Source: Vicinamibacteria bacterium (GTDB lineage Bacteria > Acidobacteriota > Vicinamibacteria > Fen-336 > JAGNNV01). From it: a stretch of 64,000 bases of DNA. The position numbers and the translations under genes are program-made. Shown piece by piece: positions 771-50,440 of this stretch. The stretch lies in assembly GCA_044229175.1 (NCBI GenBank), contig JBGATM010000001.1:24282-88281 (forward strand), in the 5' to 3' direction. The notes beneath the pieces are model-generated. The model did not search any database, was not told the DNA's origin, and saw only the letters and a list, made by a program, of their open reading frames with translations. Position 1 is the first letter of the stretch. Each line of letters begins with the position of its first letter.

Positions 771-1783
771 GCCCGTGATCGGTCCATCGCACGACGGGCC
801 AGGTCTGCGCGCGCGAGGGGCTTGGCTTCGAGTTCGTCGAGGCGTGCCGCCAGGGCCCGCGCGTCGCCGAACGGAAACAACATCGCATCGTCCCCCAACG
901 TCTCCTCGACGCCGGGAACGCGCGATCCCAGGCAGGGAAGGCCGGCGGCCATGCCTTCCAGGAGACCGTTCGGACTGCCTTCGTGGCGCGAGCTGACGAC
1001 GAGGACATCGATCGCCGATAGAAACATGTTGCGATCCACCCAGCCGAGCAGGTGGGCGCGATCGGCCTTCACAAGATCAGCCGCGCGCGTGCGCAACGAC
1101 GCCTCGTATGGCGTCGAGGATCCGAAGCCGGAAATGGCCAGGTGCACCGAGCGTGTTCCCCGCACGCCGTCGATCACGGTCTCGAGCGACTTGATGGGTG
1201 CGAGCAGGCCCAGAGCGCCCGCGATAAAGGCATCCTGCGGAAGGTTCAACCGCGCCCGCGCCGTTGTGCGATCGATGAGACGAGGCTCGGGGGCGTCGTT
1301 TGGGATGAGGAGCGGGTTGATCGATGCCGGCGCGACGCCTCTTGAAACGGCGATGACCAGAGTGCTGGCCCGAAGCGCGAGACGTTCAGTCCACTCCACG
1401 CAGGCTCGACGGAGCGGCCCCGAACCTCGAGATCTTTCCTGTTCGAGCCAGCTCCCCCGGAGAAAGGTGACGAGTCTCCGCCCGGACCGGAACGGAAGCA
1501 GGAGCGCGGCGTAAACCGACCCAAAGGCCAGAAACCCATCCACTCGCTCGGCCCGCGCCACCCGGGCCGCCAACCGCCCGGCCGAGAGCAGTCTGAAGAG
1601 GGAAACCGGCCCGCTCCCTCCCTCCAGATGGTGAAACACGAGGCCGGGCACCGGCGTTTCGGTCGTGGCCTGGGTGACGGCATGCACGGTCACGCCTCGA
1701 TGGGCCAGGGCGGCATGGAGCCGGGCCAGGCGCTCGTAACAGCCGCCGCGAGGAGGTCCCGCGTACAGGGAGAGGATCTTCAC
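695..1783 (-). CDS. Glycosyltransferase family 1 (GT4)
   Basis: A GTG start at VKILSLYAG gives a ~362-aa protein. The C-terminal domain carries the EGSPNGLLEGMAAGLPCL motif. Its stop sits 76 bp inside the convergent upstream glycosyltransferase and 10 bp downstream of the asnB-like stop. Confidence 0.75.
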   Translation of the reverse strand: MKILSLYAGPPRGGCYERLARLHAALAHRGVTVHAVTQATTETPVPGLVFHHLEGGSGPVSLFRLLSAGRLAARVARAERVDGFLAFGSVYAALLLPFRSGRRLVTFLRGSWLEQERSRGSGPLRRACVEWTERLALRASTLVIAVSRGVAPASINPLLIPNDAPEPRLIDRTTARARLNLPQDAFIAGALGLLAPIKSLETVIDGVRGTRSVHLAISGFGSSTPYEASLRTRAADLVKADRAHLLGWVDRNMFLSAIDVLVVSSRHEGSPNGLLEGMAAGLPCLGSRVPGVEETLGDDAMLFPFGDARALAARLDELEAKPLARADLARRAMDRSRAYRFDWDEVASEAVLKALREDSTSE

Positions 1784-1793
1784 GCCTTGCCTA

Positions 1794-3653: not shown

Positions 3654-3679
3654 GGAACCGCAAGGTTACCTTCCGCCTG

Positions 3680-4429
3680 CTACCCGAACAGCAGGACGAA
3701 GCCCACCTTGAACGCGAGGTAGATGACCCAGGGGATGCCGACACCCCACAACCCCGAGCTCAGGCCACGCTTGCCCGCGACCGCGAAACCGGAGGCGAAC
3801 AGGAAGAGAGTCCACAAGGAGAACAGGTCGAAGCTCGAGAGCAGGCTCCAGATCCATCGGGACATGCTGCCGACCTCGAAGAAGATCGTGGGGTTCGCCT
3901 GGATGATCTGGTTGGGATCCACATTCCAGTCGCCCTTGAGCCAGAAGACCAGGAGCATGACCGGAGTCTGGACCAGACCGATGGCCGCGAAGGTCCAGGC
4001 GATGACGGCGAGCGAGTGCATGAAAGACACGTCCGCGGCCATGAAGAACCGGAAGATGAACATGAAGATTCCGGCGAGGATCAGGTCGATCAGCACCGGC
4101 ACGAAGAAGGGAGCGATGCGGCCCCAGGTCCGCACGAACCGGGCCTGGGTATTGATGATCTGCTCCACCTGTTCGGCGGGAAGCTGCTGGATTCGCGAGT
4201 TCTGTTCCATCTGCGCCTTCATGAACTCCCGGGCATCCATCTTCTCGAGCCAGACGGAAGTGAAGAGCACGCCCATCGCGACTTGAAGGACGATGGCCAT
4301 CCACACCCGCGACTTCACGAAGATCTTCGCAAAGGTCTCCACGGGTTCGAAGTAGAGGTTGAACAGATTCCCGAGGAACGAACCGGAGTCGGCGCCTTCG
4401 GCGGCCGGGGCGTCTGGAGTTTCGGTCAC
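3680..4429 (-). CDS. Yip1-like polytopic membrane protein
   Basis: A 249-aa protein with a cytoplasmic N-terminus (FLGNLFNLYFEPVETFAKI) followed by about 5 hydrophobic helices. The gaps to the neighbouring genes are 22-26 bp. Confidence 0.45.
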   Translation of the reverse strand: MTETPDAPAAEGADSGSFLGNLFNLYFEPVETFAKIFVKSRVWMAIVLQVAMGVLFTSVWLEKMDAREFMKAQMEQNSRIQQLPAEQVEQIINTQARFVRTWGRIAPFFVPVLIDLILAGIFMFIFRFFMAADVSFMHSLAVIAWTFAAIGLVQTPVMLLVFWLKGDWNVDPNQIIQANPTIFFEVGSMSRWIWSLLSSFDLFSLWTLFLFASGFAVAGKRGLSSGLWGVGIPWVIYLAFKVGFVLLFG

Positions 4430-4451
4430 GAGGGTCTCCTCGCGGCCGAAT

Positions 4452-5702
4452 CTACTCGTATCTGAGGGCGTCGATGGGGTCGAGCTTGGCCGCTTTGAGG
4501 GCGGGCCACAGGCCGAAGAACAGGCCGACCGCGAGCGACGACACGAAGGCCGCGCCCACCCACTGGGGCTGGAAGGCCGCGGGGAAGGGGGAGAGGGCGT
4601 TCACGATCGACGCGAAGCCGCCGCCGATGGCGATGCCCAGGAGCCCTCCCACGCCGGTGAGAGTCATGGCCTCGGTCAGGAACTGCCAGAGGATGTCGCG
4701 TCGTTTCGCTCCGAGCGCCTTGCGGATGCCGATCTCGCGCGTCCTCTCCGTGACCGAGACGAGCATGATGTTCATGACCCCGACCCCGCCCACCACCAGC
4801 CCGATCGACGAGATGGCGATCATCACCAGGTAGATGCCGCCGGTGATCTGGTTGTAGAGGTCGGTGATGGCGTCCTGGGTGAAGACCGCGAAGGTGTCCT
4901 TGGCGAAGAACTTCAGCCGGCGCTTGCGCCTCAGGGTCTCGCGGATCTGCTCCTCGGCCTGGGCGAGGCGCTCGGGCGAGACCGCCTTGATGTCCGCGGC
5001 GTAGCCCTGCAGCCCCATGAAGTTAGCGGGAGGAAGGCTCTTGAGCGGCGCCAGAATGAAGTTGTCCCGGTCGATGAAGAGGAACTTGCCCTGCCGCTCG
5101 GTCACCCCGATCACCCGGAACTTCCGCCCGTCGATGGAGAGCTCCTTGTCGAGAGGGTCGAGTCCCGGAAAGACCGCGTCCACGATCGCGGGACCGATCA
5201 CCACCACCGGGGCCGAGCGCGAGGTCTCGCTCTCGTTGAAGAACCGACCTCTCTCCACGAAGACGTTGTGCACGCCCTCGTAGTCGGGCGTGGTTCCGAA
5301 CACCTGCGCGGAGTTGATCCGGAGATCCTTGTACTTGATCATGTCCGCGCGGACGAACTCGAGCGGGCTGATCGAGGAGATGTAGGACAGCTCGCGGATG
5401 GCCTTGACCTCCTCGTCCGACAGGAGCTTCCGTCTTCGACGTTCCTCCGGGGTCAGATTCTCGCCGGGCTGGAAGGGCCGCACCAGGATGAAGGCCGATC
5501 CCAGCTTGTTGAGCTGGGAGGACAGGGAGTTGTTGAGACCCGCGATGATGGACGACACCACTGACACGGTCATGATGCCCATGACCACCCCCAGAATGGT
5601 GAGGGAGGCGCGCATCTTGTAGGACACGAGGGAGGAGAGGCCCATCTTGATGGCCTCCCACAGGCCGAAGAGCGCGATCCGGAACGACCCCTTTCGAGCC
5701 AT
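4452..5702 (-). CDS. ABC transporter permease, MacB/FtsX family (periplasmic domain plus C-terminal FtsX 3-TM)
   Basis: The internal start MARKGSFRIALFGLWEAIK is aa 208 of the ORF. The 416-aa protein has an N-terminal TM, a large periplasmic domain and a C-terminal FtsX-like domain. The 5' part of the 623-aa ORF overlaps the upstream gene and is rejected. Confidence 0.85.
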   Translation of the reverse strand: MARKGSFRIALFGLWEAIKMGLSSLVSYKMRASLTILGVVMGIMTVSVVSSIIAGLNNSLSSQLNKLGSAFILVRPFQPGENLTPEERRRRKLLSDEEVKAIRELSYISSISPLEFVRADMIKYKDLRINSAQVFGTTPDYEGVHNVFVERGRFFNESETSRSAPVVVIGPAIVDAVFPGLDPLDKELSIDGRKFRVIGVTERQGKFLFIDRDNFILAPLKSLPPANFMGLQGYAADIKAVSPERLAQAEEQIRETLRRKRRLKFFAKDTFAVFTQDAITDLYNQITGGIYLVMIAISSIGLVVGGVGVMNIMLVSVTERTREIGIRKALGAKRRDILWQFLTEAMTLTGVGGLLGIAIGGGFASIVNALSPFPAAFQPQWVGAAFVSSLAVGLFFGLWPALKAAKLDPIDALRYE

Positions 5703-5704
5703 GG

Positions 5705-6946
5705 CTATTCGCTCCTCAGGGCGACCACAGGGTCGAGGGCGGCCGCGCGCGAAGCGGGATAGATCCCGGCCACCAGGCCCACCACGGTGGAGGAAATCAC
5801 GGCGATCGCGACCGCCCAGAGCTGGACGGGAGCGGAGAATTCGTCGCCCACGAAACCCGACATCAGCTTGCCGACCGCGAAGGAGAACACCGAGGCCGCG
5901 ACGACGCCGAGCAGGCCTCCGATGCCGGTGAGGAGCACCGATTCGACGATGAACTGGCTCTGGATGTCCCGGCGGCGCGCGCCCAGGGCCTTGCGGACGC
6001 CGATCTCCTTGATGCGCTCGGTGACCGAGACCAGCATGATGTTCATGACCACCACACCGCCCACCAGCAGACTGATCCCGGTGACCACCAGGGTCACCAC
6101 GTAGATGCCCTGAGTGGCGCTGTTCCACAGGTCCATGACACTCTCGCCGGTTTCGATGTTGAAATCGTCGGGGTCGGTGTAGGAAAGGTGTCGACGATTG
6201 CGCAGGGCGAGCCTCGCCTGGTCCTGGGCCAGCTCGAACACCGCCATGGACTTGGCCTCGACCTGGATGGTCACCGACCTCCTCGACCCGAAAGCCTTCC
6301 GGAAGGTGGTGATCGGAACCCACACGAAATCGTCCTGGGTCTGGCCGAAGACCTTGCCCTTCTTCTCCCCGACTCCGACCACGCGGAACCGGTTTCCGTC
6401 GATGATGATCTCCTTGCCCAGAGGTTCGGCATTCGGGAAGAGCGCATCCACGATGTCGGTCCCGATGACCGCGACGGGTCGGGCGGAATCGATGTCGTCG
6501 TTGATCAGGTGACGGCCGGTCATGAGATCCCGGATGGCGCCGATGCGGGAGTAGTTCTCGGTGATGCCCAGGACCTGGGCGCCCTCGTGGCGCACCGAGC
6601 CGTACTTCACGGTGCGGCCGGTCACCAGCACGCCCCCGACCTCGGAGCAGTACGTGCAGGCCTCCCTGACCAGGTCGATGTCGCGCAGGACCAGGTCCTT
6701 GCGCTTGTTCATTTCCCGGAACTGCTCGAACGACACGATGACCTGAGGGAACTTCTGGATGGTGAAACTCTTCGTTCCCAGGGCCAGGACCTTGTCGGCC
6801 ATGTATCGGTCGAGCCCGTCGGTGATCGCCACCACCGCGATGACCGAGGCGATGCCGATCACCACCCCGAGGATGGTGAGCACGGACCGGAGCTTGTTCG
6901 CCTTCACCGAGGCGATGGCGATGCTGATCGCTTCATGAAACGGCAT
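5705..6946 (-). CDS. ABC transporter permease, MacB/FtsX family (second, different paralog)
   Basis: A 413-aa protein with the same architecture as its neighbour. Its stop lies 2 bp from the downstream start. Confidence 0.85.
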   Translation of the reverse strand: MPFHEAISIAIASVKANKLRSVLTILGVVIGIASVIAVVAITDGLDRYMADKVLALGTKSFTIQKFPQVIVSFEQFREMNKRKDLVLRDIDLVREACTYCSEVGGVLVTGRTVKYGSVRHEGAQVLGITENYSRIGAIRDLMTGRHLINDDIDSARPVAVIGTDIVDALFPNAEPLGKEIIIDGNRFRVVGVGEKKGKVFGQTQDDFVWVPITTFRKAFGSRRSVTIQVEAKSMAVFELAQDQARLALRNRRHLSYTDPDDFNIETGESVMDLWNSATQGIYVVTLVVTGISLLVGGVVVMNIMLVSVTERIKEIGVRKALGARRRDIQSQFIVESVLLTGIGGLLGVVAASVFSFAVGKLMSGFVGDEFSAPVQLWAVAIAVISSTVVGLVAGIYPASRAAALDPVVALRSE

Positions 6947-6986
6947 CAGGGGCGTTCCTCGACGAAGCGGGCGGAAAGCGCCAGCC

Positions 6987-7700
6987 TCAAGCCTTCTTCA
7001 GGCTCAATTCGTCGCTGGCGATTTTGCCATCGCGGATCATGATGACCCGATGCGCGTGCTCGGCGATGTCCCGCTCGTGGGTGACCAGGATGATGGTGTT
7101 TCCGGCCTCGTGCAGGCGCTCGAACAGACGCATGATCTCCTCGCCGGTGGTGGAGTCGAGGTTTCCCGTGGGCTCGTCGGCGAGCAGGATGGCGGGCCCC
7201 ATGACCAGGGCGCGGGCGATGGCCACGCGCTGACGCTGGCCGCCCGACAGCTCGTTGGGCTTGTGGCTCATGCGGCTGCCCAGCTCGACCTTCTCGAGGG
7301 CCTGGCGGGCCCGGTCCATGCGCTCGCTCTTGGAGATGCCCGCGTAGACGAGGGGCAGCTCGACGTTTTCGAGGGCGGAGGCGCGCGGGAGCAGGTTGAA
7401 GGTCTGGAAAACGAAGCCGATCTCCTTGTTGCGGACTTCGGCTAAGGCATCGTCGCTCATCTTCGACACCAGCTGGTTCCGCAGGTAGTACTCGCCCTGC
7501 GAAGGCGTGTCGAGGCATCCGATGAGATTCATGAGCGTCGATTTGCCCGAACCCGAGGGGCCCATGATGGCGAGGTACTCGTTGGGCTGGATCTCGAAGG
7601 AGACGCCGCGCAGGGCGTGGATGGTCTCCTCGCCCATCTGGTAGGTGCGCCACAGATCGACGCACCGGATGATCGATGAGGCTTCGCTCGTGGCCGTCAC
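6987..7700 (-). CDS. ABC transporter ATP-binding protein (MacB/LolD-type ATPase)
   Basis: Walker A (GPSGSGKST), ABC signature (LSGGQRQR) and Walker B ([11 protein letters not shown]) are present. The stop overlaps the adaptor gene start. Confidence 0.9.
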
Positions 7701-8995
7701 TTGGAAGCCTTGTTCTTGGACTGATCCTCGAACTTGAGCAGCGCCTCGTTGCGCAGGGTTCGAAGGGTTCGATACGAACCGATGACGATCTCATCGCCGT
7801 CCTTGACGCCCTCGGTGATCTCGATGTCGGTGTCGCCCACGATTCCCGTCTTCACGGTCTTGAAGACGGCCTTCCCGTTTACGACCACGAAGACGCCTTC
7901 CTTCTCTTCGAGCTTCGCGGTTCGCGCGGGCGCGTTCGGGTTGTCGCCCGGACCGGACTGACCGATCGCGGGGTCCACGACCTTGCCGTCCTTGTCGACC
8001 TGGCGAACCACGACCGCCTGAATGGGGACGGCGGTGGTGCCCTCGCGGCGGGCGGTGATGACGTCCGCGGTGGCGTTCAAGCCCGGGCGCAGGGTGGCCG
8101 GCGGATCCTTGAGGGTGACCGTGACCTTGAAGTCCTTGGCCTGGTTGGAATTGTTCACGTTGGACGCGGTGGTGGCGGCGGCGCCGCGCGGAATCGCGGA
8201 GGAGCCGATCTCCGTCACCTCGCCCTTGATGATCGTGCCTTCGAGCGCATCGACGCGCACCTCGGCGGTCTGCCCCAGGGCGAGGTTCCGGATGTCCGTC
8301 TCGTCGACCAGGATCTCGACTTCCATGACCGAGAGATCGGCGACCACGCAGATGACGGTGGGCGAGAAGCTCTGGGCGCCGATGACGGTCTCGCCCTCTT
8401 CCTTCTGGAGACTGGTGACCACGCCGTCCATGGGGGCCATGACCGTGGTCTTGCCGAGGTCGTCCTGGGTGGTGGCCACCACCGCCGCCTGCTGGGCGAT
8501 GCGCTTGCGCTGCGACTCGACCGCGGCCTGCTTCATCTTGAACTCGGACTCGGCCTGTTCGAGGACCTGGTCGGAGACCAGCTTGTCCGCATGCATCTTC
8601 TTCTGCCGCTCGAGCGACTGGCGGCTCTGCTCGAGGTCGGCGAGCGTGCGATCGAGATCGGACCTCGAGGCCGCGAGACTCGCTTCGGACTGCCGCGCGC
8701 CTTCTTCGTACCGCTTGGCGTCGATCCGGGCCAGGATCTGGCCGCGCTTCACGCGATCGCCTTCCTTGATCAGCAACCGAACGATACGGCCGGCCACGTC
8801 GGAGGAGACGTTCACGAACTTCTTCGGTCGGATTTCGCCGGAGGCGGACACCTTGGAGACGAGGTCCTTCTTGCCGACCTTGCCGGTCTGGACCTCGACC
8901 TTCTTCCCGCTGGCCCGGGCGACGCTACCCGCGATCACGCCGCCGATCACCACGAGCGCCCCGATGAACAGCGCGATTTTCTTGCCCTTCGACAT
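7697..8995 (-). CDS. Efflux periplasmic adaptor subunit (MacA/HlyD family)
   Basis: Start chosen at [16 protein letters not shown] (aa 12 of the ORF), preceded by GGAGG. The protein has an N-terminal TM, a coiled-coil-rich middle and a beta-barrel C-terminus typical of membrane fusion proteins. Confidence 0.85.
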
Positions 8996-9146
8996 GAATC
9001 CTCCAGAATTGCCGGCCAGAGCTTCCATCTCCTGGAGAAACCTTCAGAAACTCCATGGACCGTGGACGAGACCAGACCTTCGTCCAACAATACGAATACG
9101 GAACGTGCCGCGCTTAAGTTCCGAGCGCGTTATCTTACGTGCGCCC

Positions 9147-9644
9147 ATGGAGATGGACCAAGACCACGAGAAACAAGCCCCCCGGGGGCGGCTCGAGTCG
9201 ATCCAGATCTCGAACGGAGGCGTGCCGAAGAGGAATGTTGCCTCCGCCATCGAGGTCATGCCGTCCGGTCTGGTCGGAGACCGCCAGCGCGACCTTCGTT
9301 TCCACGGGGGACCGGATCGGGCCGTGTGTCTCTTCTCGCAAGAGCAGATCGACGCGCTGCGGGCGGAGGGCCATCCGATCGATCGCGGCACCACGGGCGA
9401 AAATCTCACCATTTCCGGGCTGGATTGGAATCTCGTGCGGCCCGGGGCGCGCCTCGAGGTGGGAGAGGTCACGCTCGAGATCACCCGGCCCGCGCATCCC
9501 TGCCGGAATATCGCGGGATCTTTCGCGGATGGCGACTTTTCCCGGCTCTCCGCGAAGATCCACCCTGGCCGCGGCCGGATGTACGCCCGGGTCCTCACCC
9601 CGGGAACGATTCGACCCGGAGATCCCGTAACCGCGCAGACTTAA
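9147..9644 (+). CDS. MOSC domain-containing protein (YiiM-like)
   Basis: A 166-aa product from the internal start MEMDQDHEKQ. The MOSC signature (GDRQRDLRFHGGPDRAV..GENLTISG..EITRPAHPCRNI) is present. The upstream part of the 540-aa ORF is antisense to the macA-like gene and is rejected. Confidence 0.75.
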   Translation: MEMDQDHEKQAPRGRLESIQISNGGVPKRNVASAIEVMPSGLVGDRQRDLRFHGGPDRAVCLFSQEQIDALRAEGHPIDRGTTGENLTISGLDWNLVRPGARLEVGEVTLEITRPAHPCRNIAGSFADGDFSRLSAKIHPGRGRMYARVLTPGTIRPGDPVTAQT

Positions 9645-9797
9645 CGGACGGCTGTCCTCGGTTTCCCCTTCTTGTCATCGGAGCGGGACAATTCAGGCCT
9701 CCCAGACCCCCTTCCCGGGATGACGCATCGGCACACGGTTTGCTATGAGTTCAGTCGGCAGGGTCTCTTCCGGAGCCTGCCGATGAGGTTTCAAGCC

Positions 9798-10922
9798 ATG
9801 AAGACACTAAAAGTCATCGGAATGGTCCCCCTGGTCCTGATTGCCGCGACCGCTTTCTCTCAAGGCGATGATCGCGCCGTTCCCCGTGGCGGCGGAGGTG
9901 GGGGCGGCGATTCATCCGCGGGCGCCCGGCACACCGGGGGCGGCGGCGGCGGAGCCCCGCAAGGCGGGGGCGGAGCCCACCAGGGCGGTGGCGGTTCGTG
10001 GAGCGGAAGCTCATATCAGTCGGGCGCGGAGGGTCGCCGTCCGCGGCCCGGCACGGGGACTGGCAACCGCGATCGGTACGGCAATGAGTACAACCACTAC
10101 TACGGCCGCTATCCGTACTACTACGGCTACGGCGGTTATTACGGCTATCCCTACTCCTATTCCTACAGCCCATACGCCTATTGGGGCTATCCGGGCTATG
10201 GGTGGGGCTTTGGCCTCGGCTATGGCTACGGCTACGGCGCGTGGGGCTATGGCGATTACTACGGTTATTACCCCGCGCCCTACTATGGCGGCGGGTATCG
10301 AGAGACGAATGTCGCGCAGATCCGAACCCTGGTCGATCCGCCCAAGACCCGGGTCTATGTCGACGGCTACTACGCCGGCGTCGCGGACGATTTCGACGGC
10401 ATGTTCCAGCGTCTGAGCGTCTCGCCCGGCCGCCACGACATCGCTCTGAAGCTCGAGGGATACGCCTCGCACACCTTCTCCGTCTACGCCGGAGGCGCGG
10501 AGACCATCAAGCTTCGCTGGGACATGGTCAAAGGCACGGGCGAGACCCGGGAGACCATCGGCGAGGAATACGCCCGTCCCCTGGATCAAGGCCCCCCACC
10601 TGCTCGTGAGCTGCCTCAGAGTGAACCCCCGCGCGCCCGGCCGGAACCGGGCCGCGAGGTCGATTCTCCGCGCGTCGACCAGCCTGTGATTCAGATGTCC
10701 CAGGCCGGCCGCGGCGAAGTCCTCTTCGACATCCTCCCCCTCGACGCCTCGGTCTACATCGATGGCGAGTTCCACGGCAAGGCGTCGCAGCTGACGCAGG
10801 TCCAGCTACCGTTCGGCCGTCACCGCATCGAGGTCGTCCGTCCGGGCTACCGCACCGAAGAGACCGAGATCAACGTCGACGCCGACGGTCGGAAGATCGT
10901 GGTCAAGCTCGACCGGAGGTAG
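9798..10922 (+). CDS. Secreted Gly- and Tyr/Gly-rich protein with two PEGA domains
   Basis: Start at MKTLKVIGMVPLVLIAATAFSQG (signal peptide). Then come a poly-Gly tract and a 74-aa region that is about 45% Tyr and 35% Gly (YGYGGYYGYPYSYSYSPYAYWGYPGYGWGFGLGYGYGYGAWGYGDYYGYY). Two PEGA-like beta domains follow (TRVYVDGYYAG...GRHDIALKLEGY and ASVYIDGEFHG...GRHRIEVVRPGY). Confidence 0.7.
   Translation: MKTLKVIGMVPLVLIAATAFSQGDDRAVPRGGGGGGGDSSAGARHTGGGGGGAPQGGGGAHQGGGGSWSGSSYQSGAEGRRPRPGTGTGNRDRYGNEYNHYYGRYPYYYGYGGYYGYPYSYSYSPYAYWGYPGYGWGFGLGYGYGYGAWGYGDYYGYYPAPYYGGGYRETNVAQIRTLVDPPKTRVYVDGYYAGVADDFDGMFQRLSVSPGRHDIALKLEGYASHTFSVYAGGAETIKLRWDMVKGTGETRETIGEEYARPLDQGPPPARELPQSEPPRARPEPGREVDSPRVDQPVIQMSQAGRGEVLFDILPLDASVYIDGEFHGKASQLTQVQLPFGRHRIEVVRPGYRTEETEINVDADGRKIVVKLDRR
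10077..10298 (+). repeat. Low-complexity GGCTAC/GGCTAT-type tandem tract encoding the Tyr/Gly-rich region
   Basis: Visible ggctacggc / ggctatggc reiteration in the DNA, corresponding to aa 136-209 of the ORF. Confidence 0.6.
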
Positions 10923-10968: not shown

Positions 10969-12003
10969 CTACTGAGATCCGGCCGCGGTCGCGAGAGTCG
11001 GGTTCGTCGGGGGCGGTACGCCGAGGAGCGACCGGTAGAACTCACCGGCCACCGCGGAGGCGGCGGCGCCGTTGCCCCCGCGAACGAAGGCCACGACCAC
11101 CATCTCCGAACGCGGGTAGCCGAGAGAAGACGCGAACCAGCCGACGCCCGCGCACGATCCGGTCTTCCCGGAAGCCACGAAACCGGGGTCGAAGGCGCGT
11201 TGTGCGCTTCCCTCGGTCACGGAAGAGAAGAGTCCGGGGGCGAGGAGCGCCAGGGTGGGAGGTGCGGACAGGTGCGACCGCTCCTTCGTTTTGACCGCCT
11301 GGGGTCCGACGAACTGCGGTTCGTTGACCACGCCGCCGTTCACCAGGGCGGACATGAGCACGGCGAGCTGCATGGCGGAGGTCTTGACGCCTTGAGCATG
11401 CGACGACATATGGCCGACACCGAGACTCGGGATGGAGGAAGGAATCACGCCCGCGGTCTCGCCCGGCACGTTGATGCCGGTCGGGGAGCCCAGGCCGAGC
11501 TTCTGCGCGTAGGCGCGCACGGTCTCGAACCCCAGTCGCTCACCCACCCATTCGAAATAGGTGTTGCAGGAGACCGCGAGGGCGCGCCGCAAGTCGATGG
11601 GACCGTGCCCCGGGCTGATCCAGCAGCCGTCGGTGCAATTGAAGCGCGACTCGGGCGTGATGATGCCTTCGGTCAGTCCGGCCACCGCCACCACGAGCTT
11701 GAAGACCGAACAGGGCTGATAGGCGGTGAGAAGGCCGGACTGGGGATTGCCGATGGTGAGGACGCGGCCGGTCCAGGGGTCCATGGCGACGAGGGCGACG
11801 TTCGGCCGGTTGCGGATGGCCACCCGCGCGGCTTCTCCCACTCTCAGATCGAAGACGGACGCCTCGGGCGGAGTCAGGATCGAGACGGGAATCCACCGCG
11901 CCGGCGCGCTCTTTCGAGCTTTCGGGGCCGCGAACGCAGGCCCGCCCAGCAAGGGCAGGAGACACCCGAGGGCCAGGATTCGCGTCGGTTTTCGGAAGGA
12001 CAT
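10969..12003 (-). CDS. Penicillin-binding transpeptidase-domain protein / serine beta-lactamase-like, secreted
   Basis: Start at MSFRKPTRILALGCLLPLLGGPAFA (signal peptide; aa 95 of the ORF). SxxK (SVFK), SxN (SCN) and KTG (SGKTGS) motifs are all present. Length is 344 aa. Confidence 0.65.
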   Translation of the reverse strand: MSFRKPTRILALGCLLPLLGGPAFAAPKARKSAPARWIPVSILTPPEASVFDLRVGEAARVAIRNRPNVALVAMDPWTGRVLTIGNPQSGLLTAYQPCSVFKLVVAVAGLTEGIITPESRFNCTDGCWISPGHGPIDLRRALAVSCNTYFEWVGERLGFETVRAYAQKLGLGSPTGINVPGETAGVIPSSIPSLGVGHMSSHAQGVKTSAMQLAVLMSALVNGGVVNEPQFVGPQAVKTKERSHLSAPPTLALLAPGLFSSVTEGSAQRAFDPGFVASGKTGSCAGVGWFASSLGYPRSEMVVVAFVRGGNGAAASAVAGEFYRSLLGVPPPTNPTLATAAGSQ

Positions 12004-12175
12004 GGGCGGTGAAGCCCTGAAGCTATCACGACCCCCTAGTCCCAGGTTTCGCCGGGGCGGCGGTACACTCCCGTTCCCGAAGCGACGAGTCCCCGGGGCG
12101 GGGGTGCGGTTCGCCCCTTCGGCGTCTTCGAAAACCGCGCCACTTCTGCCCGCCTTGTTCAAAAGGAACTGCTCA

Positions 12176-43810: not shown

Positions 43811-43824
43811 GGGGATAGCCCTCA
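43808..43824. terminator. Candidate bidirectional hairpin built from the two convergent stop codons
   Basis: tgaggg-gatag-ccctca is a perfect 6-bp stem. TGA of the plus gene forms the left arm; tca (TGA of the minus gene) forms the right arm. Confidence 0.3.
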
Positions 43825-44934
43825 GTTCTGAAGGATGGCTTTGGCGAGCCGTTCGGCCGCGAGGGCCGACGCGATTTCGTTCGGGTGCCGATCCACGGGA
43901 TGCACCCACAGATCGGGCGCCTTTCTCGAGAGCAGCGGTGGCAGCAGATCGGCGAACTCGATGCCTCGATCTTTCGCGAAACCCGCGGTGCGGTCGTGGA
44001 TTTCCTGGAATGGATAGCCGTCGTCCCAGGGCACGAGAAGGGGCCAGAGGGCGAGGATGAACCGTCCGCCCCGATGCTTGAGGGTCGCGTCCATCTCCTT
44101 GATGTACTGACGGGTGACCACGATGCCGGTGCTGTTGAGGTCGCTGCCGAGGGCCTTGTACCAGTCGATCATGATCCGGGTATCGAGCCGGTCCTGGCGG
44201 ATCTTTCGCAGGAGAGCCAGGATCCTCAGGTCGAAGAAGCCGGACTTCGAGGCTCCTTCGGTTCGCCGGACCATGACCAGAGGACTCGACTCCAGCGGAG
44301 GCTGAGCGAGTTCCGGCTTTCGAACCGTGTCGTTGAGGGTCATCCCGTAGATCAGGATGTCCGGCTTCAACGCGAGTATCTCCCGGAACTTGTAGTACAG
44401 GTCGGGGAAGTCGCCGCTTGGAACGCCCGCGTTCAGAACTTCATAGCGCTCCGGCCGGCCCCGGTTGAGCAGCGCCTGCAGCCGGTCCGACACTCGATCC
44501 TCGAGACGCAGGCCCCACCCCATGTTGAAGGAATCGCCCATGAGGACCACCCGGGTGATTCCCTCCCGCTTCTCCTTGAACTCCGGCCCGAGGTAGACGA
44601 GCGAATTGAAGGGCTGCTCGACCGCGAAGTGGCGCTCCGGCAACGCCTTGTCGAGATTCCGCATGCCGATCGATTCGTAGTGGGCGAGTGTGGCCGGATC
44701 GGCGAGATCGATCTTGAAGTACCCGCGGTAATTCGTTGGATAGCACAGGAGAACCAGCGACCCCGGGCGGATGTTCCCCTCGCCGTCGGCCTTCTTGTTG
44801 GCGATCCGCACCACGGGCATATTGGGGGCCGGGCCCAGCAGGCCGAGTCGCAGCGCGCCCTCCACCAGCGTGAGGGCGAGCGGTATCGCGATGAGAAAAG
44901 GAGCCACGAGCCCCGCCACCCGTCGAATTGCCAT
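43822..44934 (-). CDS. SGNH/GDSL-hydrolase-family protein, TM-anchored (AlgJ/AlgX/DltD-like)
   Basis: N-terminal TM (MAIRRVAGLVAPFLIAIPLALTL) and a VVLMGDSFNMGWG block (GDSx nucleophile). Confidence 0.7.
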   Translation of the reverse strand: MAIRRVAGLVAPFLIAIPLALTLVEGALRLGLLGPAPNMPVVRIANKKADGEGNIRPGSLVLLCYPTNYRGYFKIDLADPATLAHYESIGMRNLDKALPERHFAVEQPFNSLVYLGPEFKEKREGITRVVLMGDSFNMGWGLRLEDRVSDRLQALLNRGRPERYEVLNAGVPSGDFPDLYYKFREILALKPDILIYGMTLNDTVRKPELAQPPLESSPLVMVRRTEGASKSGFFDLRILALLRKIRQDRLDTRIMIDWYKALGSDLNSTGIVVTRQYIKEMDATLKHRGGRFILALWPLLVPWDDGYPFQEIHDRTAGFAKDRGIEFADLLPPLLSRKAPDLWVHPVDRHPNEIASALAAERLAKAILQN

Positions 44935-44990: not shown

Positions 44991-46028
44991 ATGTCCTCCC
45001 GCCTTCGACAAGCCGCGTCCACCCTGGTTCCGGTTCTTTCCGCCCTGGTCGTGCTCGCCGTCCTCGCGGAGGCGGCAACCCGCTTCCTGAACCGGTCGGG
45101 GGAGATCTACGACGTTGAAATGTACCGGTACTCCCGCCTCCTCAAGGAGGACGCGCCGCCCGAGGCTCCCGCGATGCATCACTGGCACCGCAAGAACGCG
45201 GAGGCCACCCTCCAGGGTGTCTCGATCCGCACGAACGAACTGCGGATGCGCGACAAGCCTCGAACCGAAAAGCCGGTCCCGGGGATCCGGCGGATTCTGG
45301 TCATGGGCGATTCCATCACCCTCGGCTGGGGCGTGCCTCAGGAACGCAGCTACAGCGCGGTGCTCGAGGCCCGGTTGGCGGAGCGTGGCGAGGGCCGCTA
45401 CGAAGTCCTGAATGCCGGTGTGGGGAACTACACACTCTCCCGGATGATCGGGTACTACGATTTCGCGCTGCAGCGGCTGGAGCCGGAGACCGTCGTCCTG
45501 GCCTTCTATCTCACCAACGCGAGCCGGGAGCAGGAATCCTCCCTGGCCCGCCTGCTGGATACGCCGCTGCACTTTCCGGTTTTTCTCTGGTCGCGCGGGC
45601 TGCGCGTCTACTCGCGATTCTCGAAGGCCGCGAGCTTCCGCGATTACTACCTCGATCTCTATCAGGACGGGGGATCCGAGTACGAGGTGTTCAAGGGGCA
45701 GTTGCGCGAGTTCATCGGCCGGGTGCGCGCGGAGAAGCGGAACCTCCTCCTGGTGAACCTCCCGGATGTCCGCTACGCGTCCACGAAGCCGTATCCGTTT
45801 CAAGCCGTCTCCGACCGCGTGCTCGCGATCGGACGCGACGCGGGTGCTTCGACCCTCGATCTGACCGGGAGCGTTTCGGACCTTCCACCCGAGGTCGCGG
45901 TGAATTCCATCGAGGACCGGCATCCGGCCGCGCTTGCTCATCAGCGGTTCGCCGACGCTATTCTTGACGCCTTGCGCGCGGCCGGCTTCGTCTCGATGCG
46001 ACCCGAATCCCAGGGAGAAATGAAATGA
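44991..46028 (+). CDS. SGNH/GDSL-hydrolase-family protein, TM-anchored (second paralog)
   Basis: N-terminal TM and an ILVMGDSITLGWG block. It is divergent from the first SGNH gene. Confidence 0.7.
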   Translation: MSSRLRQAASTLVPVLSALVVLAVLAEAATRFLNRSGEIYDVEMYRYSRLLKEDAPPEAPAMHHWHRKNAEATLQGVSIRTNELRMRDKPRTEKPVPGIRRILVMGDSITLGWGVPQERSYSAVLEARLAERGEGRYEVLNAGVGNYTLSRMIGYYDFALQRLEPETVVLAFYLTNASREQESSLARLLDTPLHFPVFLWSRGLRVYSRFSKAASFRDYYLDLYQDGGSEYEVFKGQLREFIGRVRAEKRNLLLVNLPDVRYASTKPYPFQAVSDRVLAIGRDAGASTLDLTGSVSDLPPEVAVNSIEDRHPAALAHQRFADAILDALRAAGFVSMRPESQGEMK

Positions 46029-46147
46029 GTTCGTTCTCGAAGAAAGTGTTCCTCCTGACCTTGGGGATAGCCCTCTTGCTCGCGGGCGGTCTGTATTTCC
46101 TTTCCCGGTCGTCGGGCGACCAGCCCTTCAGCTACGCGATCCAATGA
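46025..46147 (+). CDS. Unannotated 40-aa single-TM micro-protein (DltX-like?)
   Basis: MSSFSKKVFLLTLGIALLLAGGLYFLSRSSGDQPFSYAIQ. Its ATG overlaps the upstream stop (ATGA) and its stop overlaps the downstream ATG (ATGA). It is absent from the ORF track because it is under 60 aa. Confidence 0.45.
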   Translation: MSSFSKKVFLLTLGIALLLAGGLYFLSRSSGDQPFSYAIQ

Positions 46148-47280
46148 AGCGGGCGCTCGGCGCCCTCCTGGCTCTGGTCTTTGGCCTGGCCCTGGCCGAG
46201 ATCGCGGTTCGCCTGACCGCGCCCGACCGTTTTGGCTCGCTGCAGCTCCTCCCCTACGACGTCGTGGAGCCCGTGACCGCGGGCATGCGCATCAACGAGG
46301 CCACGAGCTATCTGGTCTTCGAACCCGAACTCGGGTGGGAGGTCGGGCCGAACCGCCATTCCCTGAACGGGCTCTACAACTCGGACGGATGGGGCGCGCG
46401 CGTATCCGTTTCGGCGCGCGAGGGTGTGACGCCCTGGGCGACCGCGTTCGGCGACTCCTTCACCCACGGCGACGATGTGCGCGACGAGGAGACCTGGGCG
46501 GCCCGGCTCGGCGCGTTGGGCCTCCCCACCGTCAACCTCGGCGTGCCCGGTTATGGCGTCGACCAGGCCTGGCTTCGCTATCGGAAACTGAAAGATCGGG
46601 TTCGCTCGCGTGTCGTCCTGATCGGCGTGATGGCCGACAACATCGCGCGCCACCTCAACCGGTATCGGCCGTTCATCACGCCTTCCGAGCGGGTCTTCTT
46701 AGTCAAGCCCAGGTTCGAAATGAGTGAGGGCCGGCTTCGGCTCGTGCCTTCTCCGTTTCAGCGGTTCGACGATTACGCAAGCCCGCCCGAGATCCTCCGA
46801 TCGGCGCTTCGGGAGGTGGGGCTCAAGGACCGCTTCTTCGATCCGCGGTTCTACGAGTCGAGCCCGCTCGATCGATCGAAGCTGTTCCGGATCGCCCGGA
46901 CCCTTCGGCTCGACCCCGCGCGGCACGCGGACTGGAGGCCGCTCTACGCGGACGAGGCCGCGGTGGAGCTGACTCTCGCCATCGTTCGGAGCTTCGTCGA
47001 AGAGGTGCGAGGCGACGGCCGCGAGCCCGTGGTGGTCTTCATCCCCGACCGGAGCGTGGCGCAAGACGTCGCTGCGGGCCGAGTCCCGCCCACCACCGCT
47101 CTTCTCGATCGATTGAAGGCACTCGGCTGTCCGGTCGCGGATCTGACCGCCCCGGTCGCCCGATTTGCTTCGAAGGCGGAGGCCCCCGCCGCTTTTCTGC
47201 CCCACTATTCGCCCGCTCTTTCCGAGGCGGTGGCGAACTACATCGCGGACTGGAAGAAGACGGAGAAGAGTCTTCCGTAG
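46144..47280 (+). CDS. SGNH/GDSL-hydrolase-family protein, TM-anchored, DltD-sized (third paralog)
   Basis: N-terminal TM (MKRALGALLALVFGLALAEIAV) and an AFGDSFTHGDD block. Length is 378 aa. Its 3' end overlaps the convergent MBOAT gene by 43 bp. Confidence 0.65.
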   Translation: MKRALGALLALVFGLALAEIAVRLTAPDRFGSLQLLPYDVVEPVTAGMRINEATSYLVFEPELGWEVGPNRHSLNGLYNSDGWGARVSVSAREGVTPWATAFGDSFTHGDDVRDEETWAARLGALGLPTVNLGVPGYGVDQAWLRYRKLKDRVRSRVVLIGVMADNIARHLNRYRPFITPSERVFLVKPRFEMSEGRLRLVPSPFQRFDDYASPPEILRSALREVGLKDRFFDPRFYESSPLDRSKLFRIARTLRLDPARHADWRPLYADEAAVELTLAIVRSFVEEVRGDGREPVVVFIPDRSVAQDVAAGRVPPTTALLDRLKALGCPVADLTAPVARFASKAEAPAAFLPHYSPALSEAVANYIADWKKTEKSLP

Positions 47281-48383
47281 ACCTCGACGCTGTCGGTGAG
47301 CGTGAACCGGAACGGTACCCAGAGCAGAGTGACGCCCAGGAAGGTCACGAGAATGGCTCCCGCGCGGTAGGCCGGCTGAGACTGAAGCTTCATCCGCTTT
47401 CGAGCGGGCAGGAGGGTCAGGAGTTTTTGCCGGTGGAACTGGTGAGCGGCGAGAAAGACCCCGTGCCCGAGGCCCCACAAGGCGAAGGACAAGCGGTCTC
47501 CGTGCCACATGCCGCACAGGGTCATGGTCGCGAGCGAGGCGAGGCTTCCGGTCAGCAGCGGGCGCTCGGCCAGCCATTTCACGTTCAAGGCCCGGCCCGA
47601 AAGAGGCATGAAGACCTGGTCGCGCAAAAACTGGCTGAGTGAAATGTGCCAGCGCGTCCAGAACTCGCTGATGCTTGTCGAGAGATAGGGCCAGTTGAAG
47701 TTCTCTCCGATGGAGTAGCCGAAAAGCCGCGAGGCGCCAATGGCGAGATCGCTGTAGGCGGAGAAGTCGAGGTAGAGAAAAAGGCTGTAGGCGAGGAGGC
47801 CTGCCCAGAGTTCCGCCGAGGGCGCGGTCCGGTTGAAGTTCGTGTCCGAGAAGGCCCGGAGAGGCTCCACCAGGGCGAGCTTCTTGGCGAGGCCGGTGGC
47901 GATGCGAAGCAGGCTCGCGAACAACTCGGTGCGGGAGAGTGTTTCCGGGACCACGCCCTTCGCGAAGCGAGCGTACGGTTCGATGGGACCGGAGAGAAAG
48001 GTCGGCGGGAAGAGCGCGTATTCGAGCGCCTTCCCCACGGGGAGCGGATCCGCGGCCTTCGAGGCGGCGCGGCACAGGAGGATCAGGCGGAAGGAAACGT
48101 AGGACAGTCCGACCACCTGAAACGCCGGGAGGTGCGCGTACTTGTTGAGGAGCAGACCGAGGAGGGCGAGGCCGATGGCCACCGTGATCCGAAAGGGTCC
48201 CGGGACGAAGCGCAGGGTCAGCAACACGGCCAGAACCAGCGCGAAGTTGATCGCGACCGAGGCCGCCATCGTCCCGTACAAGGCGAGACCGAAGAGCAGG
48301 AGGGAGGCCGCTCGATACACGGGAGGGACGATCTTCCAGTAGAGGACCGCGAAGACCAGGACCGCGAGTGTTCCTGCGATCAC
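47238..48383 (-). CDS. MBOAT-family membrane O-acyltransferase (DltB/AlgI/PatA-like)
   Basis: Polytopic, with the conserved MBOAT His region (WTRWHISLSQFLRDQVFMPL) and WHGDR near the C-terminus. Length is 381 aa. Confidence 0.9.
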   Translation of the reverse strand: MIAGTLAVLVFAVLYWKIVPPVYRAASLLLFGLALYGTMAASVAINFALVLAVLLTLRFVPGPFRITVAIGLALLGLLLNKYAHLPAFQVVGLSYVSFRLILLCRAASKAADPLPVGKALEYALFPPTFLSGPIEPYARFAKGVVPETLSRTELFASLLRIATGLAKKLALVEPLRAFSDTNFNRTAPSAELWAGLLAYSLFLYLDFSAYSDLAIGASRLFGYSIGENFNWPYLSTSISEFWTRWHISLSQFLRDQVFMPLSGRALNVKWLAERPLLTGSLASLATMTLCGMWHGDRLSFALWGLGHGVFLAAHQFHRQKLLTLLPARKRMKLQSQPAYRAGAILVTFLGVTLLWVPFRFTLTDSVEVYGRLFSVFFQSAM

Positions 48384-50059
48384 CCGGCTTCTCCCCGGTG
48401 CGATGCGAGGTACGCGTTCCGATTGTCATTGCGGGCGATCTTGCCGCTCGAGGTCTTGATCAGGTGGCCTTCCTTCACCACGAGCACCTCGGAAAGGGCC
48501 AGATCCATCTGCTGCAAGACGGATTGAACGATCTCTCTCCGGATGGCTCGAGCGCGCACGGGATCGTCGGCCTCCGGACTCTCCACCATGGCGACCGCGC
48601 TCTCCGTCCCCTTCGCTTCGGAGCGGGCGCCAAAGGCGACCACGCGGCCGGCCTTGACTCCTCGCACCGATCCCGCGATCCGCTCGACCTCGTTGGGGAG
48701 GAACTTGCGGCCGCCGACCACGATCAGGTCGTTGTCCCGCCCGAGAACGTACAGTTCGCCGTCCTGGAGGAAACCCAGGTCGCGCGTGAAGTACCACCCA
48801 TCGGCTCGACGAGCCGCGGTCTCCTCGGGCAGACCGAGGTACTCGGCGAAGAGGAAAGGCCCAGAGATCGCGATCTCGCCCACCACACCCTCGCTCACCT
48901 CCCGCCGTCCCTCGTCCACGATTCGGATCCCCACATCACGGATCGCCCGGCCCGACGATGCGAGGACGCGGCGGGTGCTGGGGGCGGGCGCCACCGCGAG
49001 CGGACGGCCTCCGGGTTCGAGACGGGTTCCATCGACATCGACCCGTCGCGGACCGGCGCCGTCGGTCTGGGTGACCGCGAAGACGTTCTCGGCCATGGCG
49101 TACGAGGCCTGGATCGAACCGGCCCGAAAGCCGCGACTCGCGAAGGCTTCGACGAAGCGGTCCATGGACGAGGGCATCACCACCTCCGAGCAGTTCACAA
49201 TCGCGCGAATGCCCTCGAGGGAGGAGGGAGGGACGGCGCCGGCTGCCGCGCCGTGGCGATCCGCGAGAAGGGCGAAGGCGAAGTTCGGCCACCAGGAGAG
49301 GGAAGCCTGCGCCGCCCCCATGTCCTCCACGAATCCGAGGGGATTCAGGATGAAGGACTCGGGCGTCATCGAGCGGCACGAGACTCCGTGGCTGAGCGGC
49401 AGCAGAAACGAGGTCAGAAGCCCCATGTCGTGATAGAGCGGAAGCCAGGTCGCGATGAGGTCGCGGGCGGGGTCGAGGCGGATGGCATTCGCATAGGCGG
49501 TCAGGTGATCGAGGACCGCGTCGTGGGTCAGGGCGACACCCTTGGGCACTCCCGTGCTTCCCGAGGAATGCTGCAGGAAGGCGATCGCCGACGACGGCTC
49601 GGGAGCCCTTCCCACCTGCGACTCCGCCTGCAGATCGGTCACGTCGATCCATCGGACCGCCCGGGTCGTCATTCCGAGCAGGCGTTCCCGCACTTCCTTC
49701 GAAGCCACCACCACGTCGGTCTGGTAGCGGTCGAGGAGCGCTTCGAGGTTTCGCACGTACGTGGGCACGTGCGTCTTGAACGTGGGCAGCGAGAGGTTGG
49801 CGGGCACGAGGTCGGCGGCCATGGCGGCCACGAAACTCGTCCACAGCTCCGGCGAGGTCGGACACAGCACCGGGACGACTTGCCCATGCCCGAGGCCCGA
49901 TCGCTTCAGCCGAAGCGCCGTCCCGGCGATGCGGTGCGCGAGGGCGTTCGCCTCGATCGTCTCCGGAGAGGCGCCCGCGAAGGAATACGCCGCCCGGCAG
50001 TCTCTCGAGGTGAGGGACCGAAGGATGGCGGCGGGGAGCGACTCTTTCGGGTTGCTCAA
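48380..50059 (-). CDS. AMP-dependent synthetase/ligase, fatty-acyl-AMP-ligase-like adenylating enzyme (DltA role)
   Basis: Adenylation core motif FLQHSSGSTGVPKGV. Length is 559 aa. Its stop overlaps the MBOAT start. Confidence 0.85.
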   Translation of the reverse strand: MSNPKESLPAAILRSLTSRDCRAAYSFAGASPETIEANALAHRIAGTALRLKRSGLGHGQVVPVLCPTSPELWTSFVAAMAADLVPANLSLPTFKTHVPTYVRNLEALLDRYQTDVVVASKEVRERLLGMTTRAVRWIDVTDLQAESQVGRAPEPSSAIAFLQHSSGSTGVPKGVALTHDAVLDHLTAYANAIRLDPARDLIATWLPLYHDMGLLTSFLLPLSHGVSCRSMTPESFILNPLGFVEDMGAAQASLSWWPNFAFALLADRHGAAAGAVPPSSLEGIRAIVNCSEVVMPSSMDRFVEAFASRGFRAGSIQASYAMAENVFAVTQTDGAGPRRVDVDGTRLEPGGRPLAVAPAPSTRRVLASSGRAIRDVGIRIVDEGRREVSEGVVGEIAISGPFLFAEYLGLPEETAARRADGWYFTRDLGFLQDGELYVLGRDNDLIVVGGRKFLPNEVERIAGSVRGVKAGRVVAFGARSEAKGTESAVAMVESPEADDPVRARAIRREIVQSVLQQMDLALSEVLVVKEGHLIKTSSGKIARNDNRNAYLASHRGEAG

Positions 50060-50197
50060 AACGTGGCGTACATGAACGCCGTTTCGCCGCCCTGGTCGAG
50101 GGCGAGGGCCAGGAAGAGGATGACACCCACGAGGACGATCAGGAACGTGGTCTGAATCGGCCGGGGCAGGCCGTCGAGATACTGCGCCGGGGCGAAG

Positions 50198-50440
50198 TCA
50201 GCGCGCAGCGGCATCGGTGAGAGCCACGCACTTGTCTATGGTGTCGAGGTCTTCGAGCCCCACCCCGTCGGTCGCCAGATTGAACTCGGTGTGGAGGAAG
50301 GCCAGGAGCCGCACCGCGGAGAAGGAGTCCACGAGACCCGAACTGAAGAGCGCTTCGTCACCCCCGAGATCGAGGTCGGGCTCGTTCAGGAGATCCTTCG
50401 CCACGAACTGACGGATTCGCTGCCGTCGCTCCTCGCTCAT
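50198..50440 (-). CDS. Acyl/peptidyl carrier protein (DltC-like)
   Basis: 80 aa from ATG (90 aa if the GTG at 50470 is used). The phosphopantetheine-attachment site GLVDSFSAVRLLAFL resembles the DltC IIDSF...LLL motif. Confidence 0.75.
   Translation of the reverse strand: MSEERRQRIRQFVAKDLLNEPDLDLGGDEALFSSGLVDSFSAVRLLAFLHTEFNLATDGVGLEDLDTIDKCVALTDAAAR

Follow-up and report, generated by a model that had tools for sequence, protein, structure and literature searches.

Our subject is a 40-residue open reading frame (ORF) in a 64,000-nucleotide stretch of the Vicinamibacteria bacterium assembly GCA_044229175.1 (contig JBGATM010000001.1, positions 24,282 to 88,281 of the forward strand), which we call the window. 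The ORF lies between two genes for membrane-anchored SGNH proteins, close to an operon for a phosphopantetheine carrier protein, a 52-residue microprotein, an adenylating enzyme of the fatty-acyl-AMP ligase (FAAL) type and a DltB-like MBOAT (Table 1). Two different tyrosine "acyl-shuttle" microproteins appear to be in use in this envelope-acylation cluster, which belongs to an uncultured Gram-negative bacterium. By analogy with known systems, the 52-residue protein fits best as the canonical DltX-type shuttle of the locus, the one that would accept the acyl group from the MBOAT, and the 40-residue protein is most likely a second, SGNH-dedicated tyrosine-tail shuttle or docking subunit with an FxYxxQ variant of the motif.

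The 40-residue ORF is a genuine, strongly conserved gene. It runs from an ATG through 40 codons to a TGA and translates as MSSFSKKVFLLTLGIALLLAGGLYFLSRSSGDQPFSYAIQ. Its ATG (46025-46027) overlaps the TGA (46026-46028) of the upstream 345-residue SGNH gene, and its own TGA (46145-46147) overlaps the ATG (46144-46146) of the downstream 378-residue SGNH gene, with the sequence ATGA at both junctions. The initial annotation, made from the letters of the window alone, had the coordinates, the translation and this double coupling correct in every particular; it also called the ORF unannotated, which is true of the ORF track it worked from but not of syntenic contigs, where JGI and other gene callers list a 40-residue hypothetical protein. 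Among eight distinct DNA versions of the ORF, pairwise dN/dS is 0.00-0.18 at dS values of 0.19-2.3. When the versions are pooled, the sense frame has a pN/pS of 0.12 and the other five frames have values of 0.31-6.3. Alignment columns that vary number 11, 5 and 35 at codon positions 1, 2 and 3, the last out of 40 third positions, and synonymous sites are near saturation.

Spurious ORFs are abundant in GC-rich genomes and this one is short, so it might have arisen by chance where an intergenic or overlap region is rich in GC, or be a frameshifted extension of the 345-residue SGNH protein. We consider this explanation effectively refuted. A chance ORF is ruled out by the dN/dS values and by a coding signature that is confined to the sense frame and leaves 35 of 40 third positions variable. 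The junction with the upstream gene is an ATGA overlap in the window and in one syntenic locus (L008; fetched loci are numbered with an L) and a 1-nt spacer in three others (L001, L006 and L007), and a GGAG(A/G) element lies 4-9 nt before the start in every lineage examined. Since the frame relative to the upstream gene varies among relatives and the ORF has its own Shine-Dalgarno element, it must be independently initiated, which rules out a C-terminal extension of the SGNH protein by frameshifting. Additionally, the copy in L009 stands alone as a gene.

The predicted topology of the protein has residues 1-7 basic and cytoplasmic, residues 8-26 as a transmembrane helix, and residues 27-40 as a periplasmic tail ending PFSYAIQ, with Tyr37 the fourth residue from the C-terminus. 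The best 19-residue hydrophobic window is residues 8-26 (Kyte-Doolittle 2.37), the N-side carries a net charge of +2 and the C-side one of 0, and AlphaFold2 run for the protein alone on the family alignment makes residues 3-29 a helix and residues 30-40 a flexible tail of low confidence. The basic N-terminus, single helix and ...DQPFSYAIQ tail described at the outset are thus borne out by translation, hydrophobicity and structure prediction. Every family member obeys the positive-inside rule when N-side and C-side charges are compared. In the tail F35 and Y37 are invariant in 11 of 11 aligned members, and the C-terminal residue is Q in ten and R in one. Across lineages the invariant residues are F9, T12, G14, L23, S29, P34, F35 and Y37, with Q40 nearly so; P34, F35 and Y37 stay fixed at about 45-50% identity while the transmembrane residues drift.

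This combination of features is rare. We scanned the window and 95 fetched loci in all six frames (about 1.5 Mb; 24,761 stop-to-stop segments of at least 30 residues) for a transmembrane helix followed by 4-14 residues and then a tyrosine fourth from the stop. The pattern occurs in 26 segments, all but one of which belong to the 40-residue family, the 52-residue family or DUF5989-like ORFs. When a phenylalanine at -6 is also required, unrelated loci yield one DUF5989 ORF (L080) and the C-terminus of one MBOAT with a fused shuttle (L022, ending ...TTQFIYFQF).

A word-indexed search of 5.8 billion proteins returned nine homologs, all of 40 residues and 80-95% identical; both ends of the protein (MSSFSK... 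and ...PF[ST]YAIQ) are the same in all of them, and the changes within the helix are conservative. In the syntenic contigs L001-L008 the ORF has already been called as a gene between the same two SGNH genes. The conserved micro-ORF that the initial annotation proposed to look for in syntenic loci is therefore present in all of these with its frame intact, at the dN/dS values given above. When the family profile was run exhaustively with HMMER against 1.84 billion cluster representatives, only three further clusters came up (P0104, P0106 and P0108), of 38-45 residues. Scans with the micro-ORF profile gave only 4 close relatives in metagenomes, and 43 pattern matches in a genome collection, none of which was confirmed. 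NCBIfam holds no model for either microprotein, for DltX or for DUF5989. Protein Data Bank sequence searches with both micro-ORF profiles and with Bacillus thuringiensis DltX gave chance matches only, no DltX chain being deposited there, and an Rfam scan of the whole window found nothing.

Altogether the micro-ORF is present in five diverged lineages. In four of the five it directly follows a gene of the type of the 345-residue SGNH protein (SGNH345), namely in the window clade, L010/L098, L096/L097 and the P0106 contig, and the SGNH345 proteins of these lineages are 44-60% identical. In L009 nothing lies between the two SGNH genes, and a 42-residue copy (ending ...PFSYVLQ) lies about 240 bp from the carrier gene, divergently transcribed. 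The 3' end of this relocated copy overlaps convergently with a gene for a 686-residue polytopic membrane protein (L009 12985-15045, minus strand), which has no Pfam match and no homolog in the window. In L010 (7868-7996, plus strand) and L011 the micro-ORF is at its usual position and ends PFSYAVR, and it has no ATG, GTG or TTG start; the only plausible start is a CTG 4 nt after a strong GAGGAGGG. This homolog either uses a non-canonical start codon or is a decaying copy whose tail is intact. In L006 the 378- and 370-residue SGNH genes are fragmented (8783-9920 and 11147-12107), probably by indel errors of a long-read assembly, and the 40- and 52-residue ORFs are intact. Wherever a locus covers both positions (L002-L004, L006, L007, L009 and L010), both micro-ORFs are found. 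The initial annotation expected a functional link of the SGNH genes to the MBOAT/carrier/ligase block if the likeness to DltX held; such a link is supported by this synteny, which is conserved to about 45% identity, and by the L009 copy beside the carrier operon.

The acyl-tyrosine shuttle mechanism, both of DltX and of the fused PatA motif, was worked out only in 2023-2025. The C-terminal FXYXXF of DltX is an "acyl shuttle" whose invariant tyrosine is acylated by DltB from DltC and passes the acyl group to the serine of the SGNH protein DltD; PatA and other MBOATs carry the same hexapeptide joined to two extra helices, and MBOAT pathways other than Dlt are said to lack a DltX-like microprotein (PMC12148441). 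DltX of B. thuringiensis 407 (Bt407) is MERLKEIWSRPLTQWVAKTVYYLAILFALLWLYGFHDTNTSTFIYNEF, with 48 residues and a FIYNEF end, and its gene sits in a dltXABCD operon (PMC5541007). The tail of DltX binds in the catalytic pocket of DltD, the transmembrane helices of the two proteins touch in AlphaFold 3 models, and DltX is also a protein-protein connector whose tail binds both DltD and DltE (PMC13653941). The DltX C-terminal motif as given in the initial annotation was essentially right, in view of the FXYXXF consensus with its invariant tyrosine (PMC12148441) and the FIYNEF of Bt407 (PMC5541007).

When B. thuringiensis DltX, the 52-residue protein and every member of the 40-residue family are aligned from their C-termini, they share one design: a positive-inside N-terminus, one transmembrane helix, exactly 10 residues from the end of the helix to the tyrosine, phenylalanine at -6 and tyrosine at -4. 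The 40-residue protein and DltX are both small (about 40-50 residues, DltX being about 45-50), and both have an N-in/C-out single helix, by predicted topology for ours, and a flexible extracytoplasmic tail in which the invariant tyrosine is fourth from the end and a phenylalanine stands two residues before it, in the register of FIYNEF. In both cases the other genes of the cluster encode a DltB-like MBOAT, a carrier, an adenylating enzyme and SGNH proteins with a membrane anchor. There are also differences. DltX belongs to PF12459 (DUF3687), ends in F and is encoded at the head of the ligase operon, whereas the gene of the 40-residue protein lies between SGNH genes on the other strand. The Dlt system is Gram-positive and uses DltA, whereas the locus here is from a diderm and has a FAAL-type ligase and a second, more canonical DltX-like protein. 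PF12459 gave no match to the 40-residue ORF (hmmscan, E<=0.1) and none to four of its relatives or to three proteins of the 52-residue family (E<=1), while the positive control, Bt407 DltX, scored 75.7 bits (E 2e-21). Judged by sequence, then, neither microprotein is a member of the DltX family. The initial annotation had said that the ORF resembles DltX; the architecture and register of this likeness hold, with Phe -6 and Tyr -4 matching on alignment to real DltX, but the terminal F and the family match are absent, the operon is the wrong one and the 52-residue protein is the better counterpart.

That second protein fell below the 60-residue limit of the ORF track and does not appear in the initial annotation. 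It translates as MPLRADFAPAQYLDGLPRPIQTTFLIVLVGVILFLALALDQGGETAFMYATF, with the C-terminus FMYATF and its tyrosine at position 49. Its eight homologs are 69-98% identical, with the last 11 residues invariant, and it is conserved in all syntenic loci, with equivalents in L009 (TPFMYLAF) and L010 (VPFLYIGF). The two microproteins have the same design and tyrosine register and their genes co-occur. An hhalign comparison of the families aligns their tails tyrosine to tyrosine (RSSGDQPFSYA with DQGGETAFMYA, probability 47%, 11 columns) and detects no homology outside the tail. They differ in that the N-terminus of the 52-residue protein is longer and variable, with a conserved LPR..QT motif, and in that this protein ends FxYxxF and is encoded in the carrier-ligase-MBOAT operon, whereas the 40-residue protein ends FxYxxQ and is encoded in the SGNH operon. 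Because of its FxYxxF end and its place inside the carrier-ligase-MBOAT operon, the 52-residue protein would be the better DltX counterpart. The initial annotation implied instead that the 40-residue protein is the sole or true DltX equivalent, taking the acyl group from the MBOAT, in which case the 52-residue protein would have some other role. The DltX-like architecture and the conserved membership in the cluster speak for that assignment, but we find it very improbable when the other protein has an exact FxYxxF within an invariant stretch of 11 residues and is coupled inside the carrier-ligase-MBOAT operon, like dltX in dltXABCD (PMC5541007), and the 40-residue gene is on the opposite strand among SGNH genes.

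The locus as a whole has the makeup of the MBOAT-SGNH class known from Dlt and PatAB. It encodes an MBOAT with the conserved histidines and separate, anchored SGNH proteins with a catalytic serine; the tyrosine hexapeptide, which in this class is either fused or on a microprotein, is on microproteins here (FMYATF and FSYAIQ); and the donor side is of the Dlt type, a carrier thioester with an adenylating enzyme, the latter being FAAL-type. The PatA/AlgI-type MBOATs have the same arrangement of a tyrosine fourth from the C-terminus after the last transmembrane helix, from which the acyl group is handed to an SGNH serine (PMC12148441). In those proteins the motif is fused to the MBOAT, whereas here it is on a free microprotein and the MBOAT ends like DltB. 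Our literature search found no paper describing a FAAL+MBOAT+SGNH system.

Table 1. Features of the locus, with positions counted from the first letter of the window.
Feature	Position	Strand	Basis or remark
40-aa single-pass membrane microprotein gene	46025..46147	+	translation, 9 homologs, dN/dS, frame control, AlphaFold2
Shine-Dalgarno element GGGAG	46013..46017	+	7 nt 5' of the ATG of the 40-aa ORF
52-aa single-pass microprotein, ends GGETAFMYATF	50056..50214	-	perfect FxYxxF; translation, 8 homologs
80-aa phosphopantetheine carrier protein (Ser in GLVDSFS)	50198..50440	-	Pfam PP-binding 22.6 bits, cutoff 20.8
559-aa fatty-acyl-AMP-ligase-type adenylating enzyme	48380..50059	-	Pfam AMP-binding 143.8 bits
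381-aa DltB-like MBOAT	47238..48383	-	Pfam MBOAT 81.5 bits
345-aa membrane-anchored SGNH/GDSL protein	44991..46028	+	Pfam Lipase_GDSL_2 46.5 bits; GDS Ser motif ILVMGDSITLGWG; DRHP block V
378-aa membrane-anchored SGNH-fold protein (AFGDSFTHGDD)	46144..47280	+	start overlaps the stop of the 40-aa ORF
370-aa membrane-anchored SGNH/GDSL protein	43822..44934	-	Pfam Lipase_GDSL_2 34.2 bits

The four minus-strand genes are translationally coupled. The carrier and 52-residue genes overlap by 17 nt, the TTG start of the ligase overlaps the stop of the 52-residue ORF (TTGA), and the GTG start of the MBOAT overlaps the stop of the ligase (GTGA). The carrier, which is called as an 80-residue protein in L002-L006, also has weak matches to DltC and to the OlsHI acyl carrier protein. 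The best NCBIfam matches of the ligase are the FAAL subfamilies PRK07768 and PRK09192, and no DltA model is found in its top 25; with a FAAL-type enzyme in place of DltA, the group transferred is probably a fatty acid and not D-Ala. The MBOAT scores 172 bits against the DltB model TIGR04091, below its cutoff of 375, and its nearest solved structures are those of DltB (6BUG and 8JEM, E 1e-25), with the alignment reaching chain residue 407 of 425. It carries the motifs RWHISLS and GMWHG with the conserved histidines, and its C-terminus (...FSVFFQSAM) stops where DltB stops, with no fused FxYxxF shuttle. An lpxB gene lies a few kilobases from the cluster, which indicates that the host is a diderm. 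In L002, genes for bacterial microcompartment shell proteins, three EutN/CcmL and one BMC (4232-5422, in the part syntenic with the window beyond about 54.7 kb) adjoin a spermidine/putrescine-type ABC transporter, likewise a few kilobases from the cluster.

The following mechanism would bring these parts together. The FAAL-type ligase would adenylate a carboxylic acid, probably a fatty acid, and load it onto the 80-residue carrier, and the DltB-like MBOAT would transfer the acyl group through the membrane to Tyr49 in the 52-residue microprotein. The membrane-anchored SGNH enzymes would take it on their catalytic serine and deliver it to a periplasmic acceptor. The 40-residue protein would be made in stoichiometric coupling with two of these SGNH enzymes. 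By analogy with DltX/DltD and PatA/PatB, we infer that its helix pairs with the transmembrane anchor of the SGNH345-type enzyme and that Tyr37 is acylated, with the flexible PFSYAIQ tail reaching into an SGNH active site in the way the tail of DltX reaches into DltD. Tyr37 would then be a second acyl-tyrosine station, either in a relay from one SGNH enzyme to another or in a parallel branch through which one MBOAT would supply a second SGNH enzyme or acceptor. We hold the chances of this pairing, with Tyr37 as a second station, to be about even. The complete route, in which the acyl group would pass from carrier to Tyr49, SGNH serine, Tyr37, a second SGNH serine and finally the acceptor, or in which two shuttles would serve different SGNH enzymes or acceptors in parallel, we rate as unlikely.

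Several observations weigh against a second shuttle. The shuttle hexapeptide ends in F and the 40-residue family ends in Q or R, and there is no Pfam DltX match. The one Pfam match that the ORF does have is to another family and is sub-threshold, and one relative (L096) has a carbamoyltransferase among its visible neighbors and no MBOAT within a contig that ends there. A canonical shuttle is already present, and the known mechanism does not require a second. The family is also rare, with 4 clusters among 1.84 billion representatives, all from uncultured lineages.

Alternatively, the 40-residue protein may be a non-catalytic docking, assembly or regulatory subunit. Its conserved tail would bind an SGNH enzyme at the transmembrane anchor and the active-site cleft, and the protein would scaffold the MBOAT and SGNH proteins, or gate or inhibit the SGNH enzyme, with Tyr37 never acylated. 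This is the main rival, and a serious though not a likely one. The Q or R in place of the terminal F and the presence of a canonical shuttle both speak for it, DltX itself is also a connector whose tail binds DltD and DltE (PMC13653941), and a stoichiometric complex is suggested by the translational coupling to the SGNH genes on both sides. Yet the residues that are invariant are the chemically relevant P-F-x-Y, at the DltX register and on the same 10-residue tether, and an invariant tyrosine at -4 is not obviously needed for docking alone.

The sub-threshold Pfam match is to DUF5989 (PF19451), at 20.1 bits (E 6.7e-4) against a gathering score of 27 bits, and aligns residues 5-39 of the ORF, that is the helix and tail, to profile positions 14-48 of 49. 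Two of four scanned relatives gave 15.2 and 12.7 bits (E 0.023 and 0.14) and the other two had no match. A real member from L080 scores 89 bits and a consensus sequence 97 bits. DUF5989 resembles the 40-residue protein in being a small single-helix protein that ends PFxYxx-hydrophobic (the consensus ends PFIYTLF) beside SGNH homologs. It differs in its conserved N-terminal ELWxFxxxRKKWWL segment, which the 40-residue protein lacks, and the latter ends in Q. The microproteins in L080 (1554-1730, minus strand) and L086 (ORF ending at 3179, plus strand) end PFIYTLF and PAIYSIF after one transmembrane helix, beside homologs of the 378-residue SGNH protein in a Gemmatimonadales and a Nitrospira metagenome-assembled genome. 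DUF5989, a name for which our literature search found no paper, may be an unrecognized acyl-shuttle family.

We take DUF5989 to be possibly of the SxtK type, and sxtL presumably encodes a GDSL-type protein. In the sxtI-J-K-L layout a carbamoyltransferase gene is followed by a small ORF and then sxtL, with a sxtK of 165 bp (PMC2679770). A block that resembles saxitoxin sxtI-sxtJ-sxtK-sxtL is seen in L096 (3-617, minus strand; 793-8383, plus strand), where genes for an SGNH345 protein, the micro-ORF, a 726-residue ALGX-like protein, a 148-residue protein that is possibly a lipoprotein, and a 380-residue SGNH protein (SGNH380) follow one another, with the carbamoyltransferase (Carbam_trans_N, 192 bits) transcribed divergently. 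The 40-residue protein might thus be a DUF5989- or SxtK-like SGNH partner that works independently of the MBOAT, its position next to the MBOAT block being coincidental or secondary. The weak DUF5989 matches of the window ORF and two relatives, the PFIYTLF ending, the DUF5989-like ORFs in L080 and L086 and the carbamoyltransferase near the L096 member, in a layout shared with sxtI-J-K-L (PMC2679770), all lean that way. We nevertheless think it quite unlikely, as all matches are under the gathering score and some relatives have none, all loci of sufficient length have the MBOAT/FAAL/carrier block alongside, the L009 gene has moved to the divergent promoter region of the carrier operon, and the window has no carbamoyltransferase.

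All three SGNH proteins of the locus have a GDS motif and an N-terminal anchor. The 370-residue protein is a paralog of the 345-residue one, is divergently transcribed from it and is kept in syntenic loci. The 378-residue protein, which the initial annotation called DltD-like, gives a confident SGNH-fold model (pLDDT 90.3), and its sequence profiles touch AlgJ and AlgX weakly; neither sequence profile nor fold ranking favors DltD, so that label has to be dropped. A genome scan with its profile found relatives of at most 37% identity (best full-length match) in many phyla, almost none of them beside an MBOAT. This SGNH family is much broader than the Dlt-like system here, and since its relatives usually lack an MBOAT neighbor, the system with all seven genes is limited to a few closely defined, uncultured lineages.

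The anchors of the three proteins (44991-45090, 46144-46220 and, on the minus strand, 44840-44934) share the motif L-x-E-x-x-x-R-(L/F), as LAEAATRF, LAEIAVRL and LVEGALRL, and the wider family has this motif as its consensus too. A membrane-embedded Glu/Arg pair could be a contact site for a partner helix. The 378-residue SGNH and MBOAT genes are convergent and their 3' ends overlap by 43 nt (47238-47280), an overlap kept in L002, L003, L004, L007 and L008, which leaves no room for terminators between the two operons.

To our knowledge, acyl-tyrosine shuttles have so far been described as one per MBOAT, and as free microproteins only in the Gram-positive Dlt pathway. The new finding is that a carrier-dependent MBOAT-SGNH system of a Gram-negative bacterium has two free tyrosine-tail microproteins, one FxYxxF and one FxYxxQ. 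The locus places a free canonical shuttle in the FAAL- and carrier-fed MBOAT system of a diderm, and adds to it a second conserved tyrosine-tail microprotein with a distinct terminal residue that is wired to the SGNH genes. DUF5989-type microproteins are possible shuttles in other SGNH systems, and ORFs of fewer than 60 residues beside SGNH or MBOAT genes deserve systematic calling. If Tyr37 is acylated, extramembrane acyl relays can have more than one tyrosine station, and the locus would offer a simple, testable model of a single MBOAT that supplies several SGNH transferases, the problem also posed by AlgI/AlgJ/AlgX. Should the relay or the parallel shuttles prove true, the locus would hold the first MBOAT-SGNH lipidation system of a Gram-negative envelope to combine multiple shuttles with dependence on a carrier protein.

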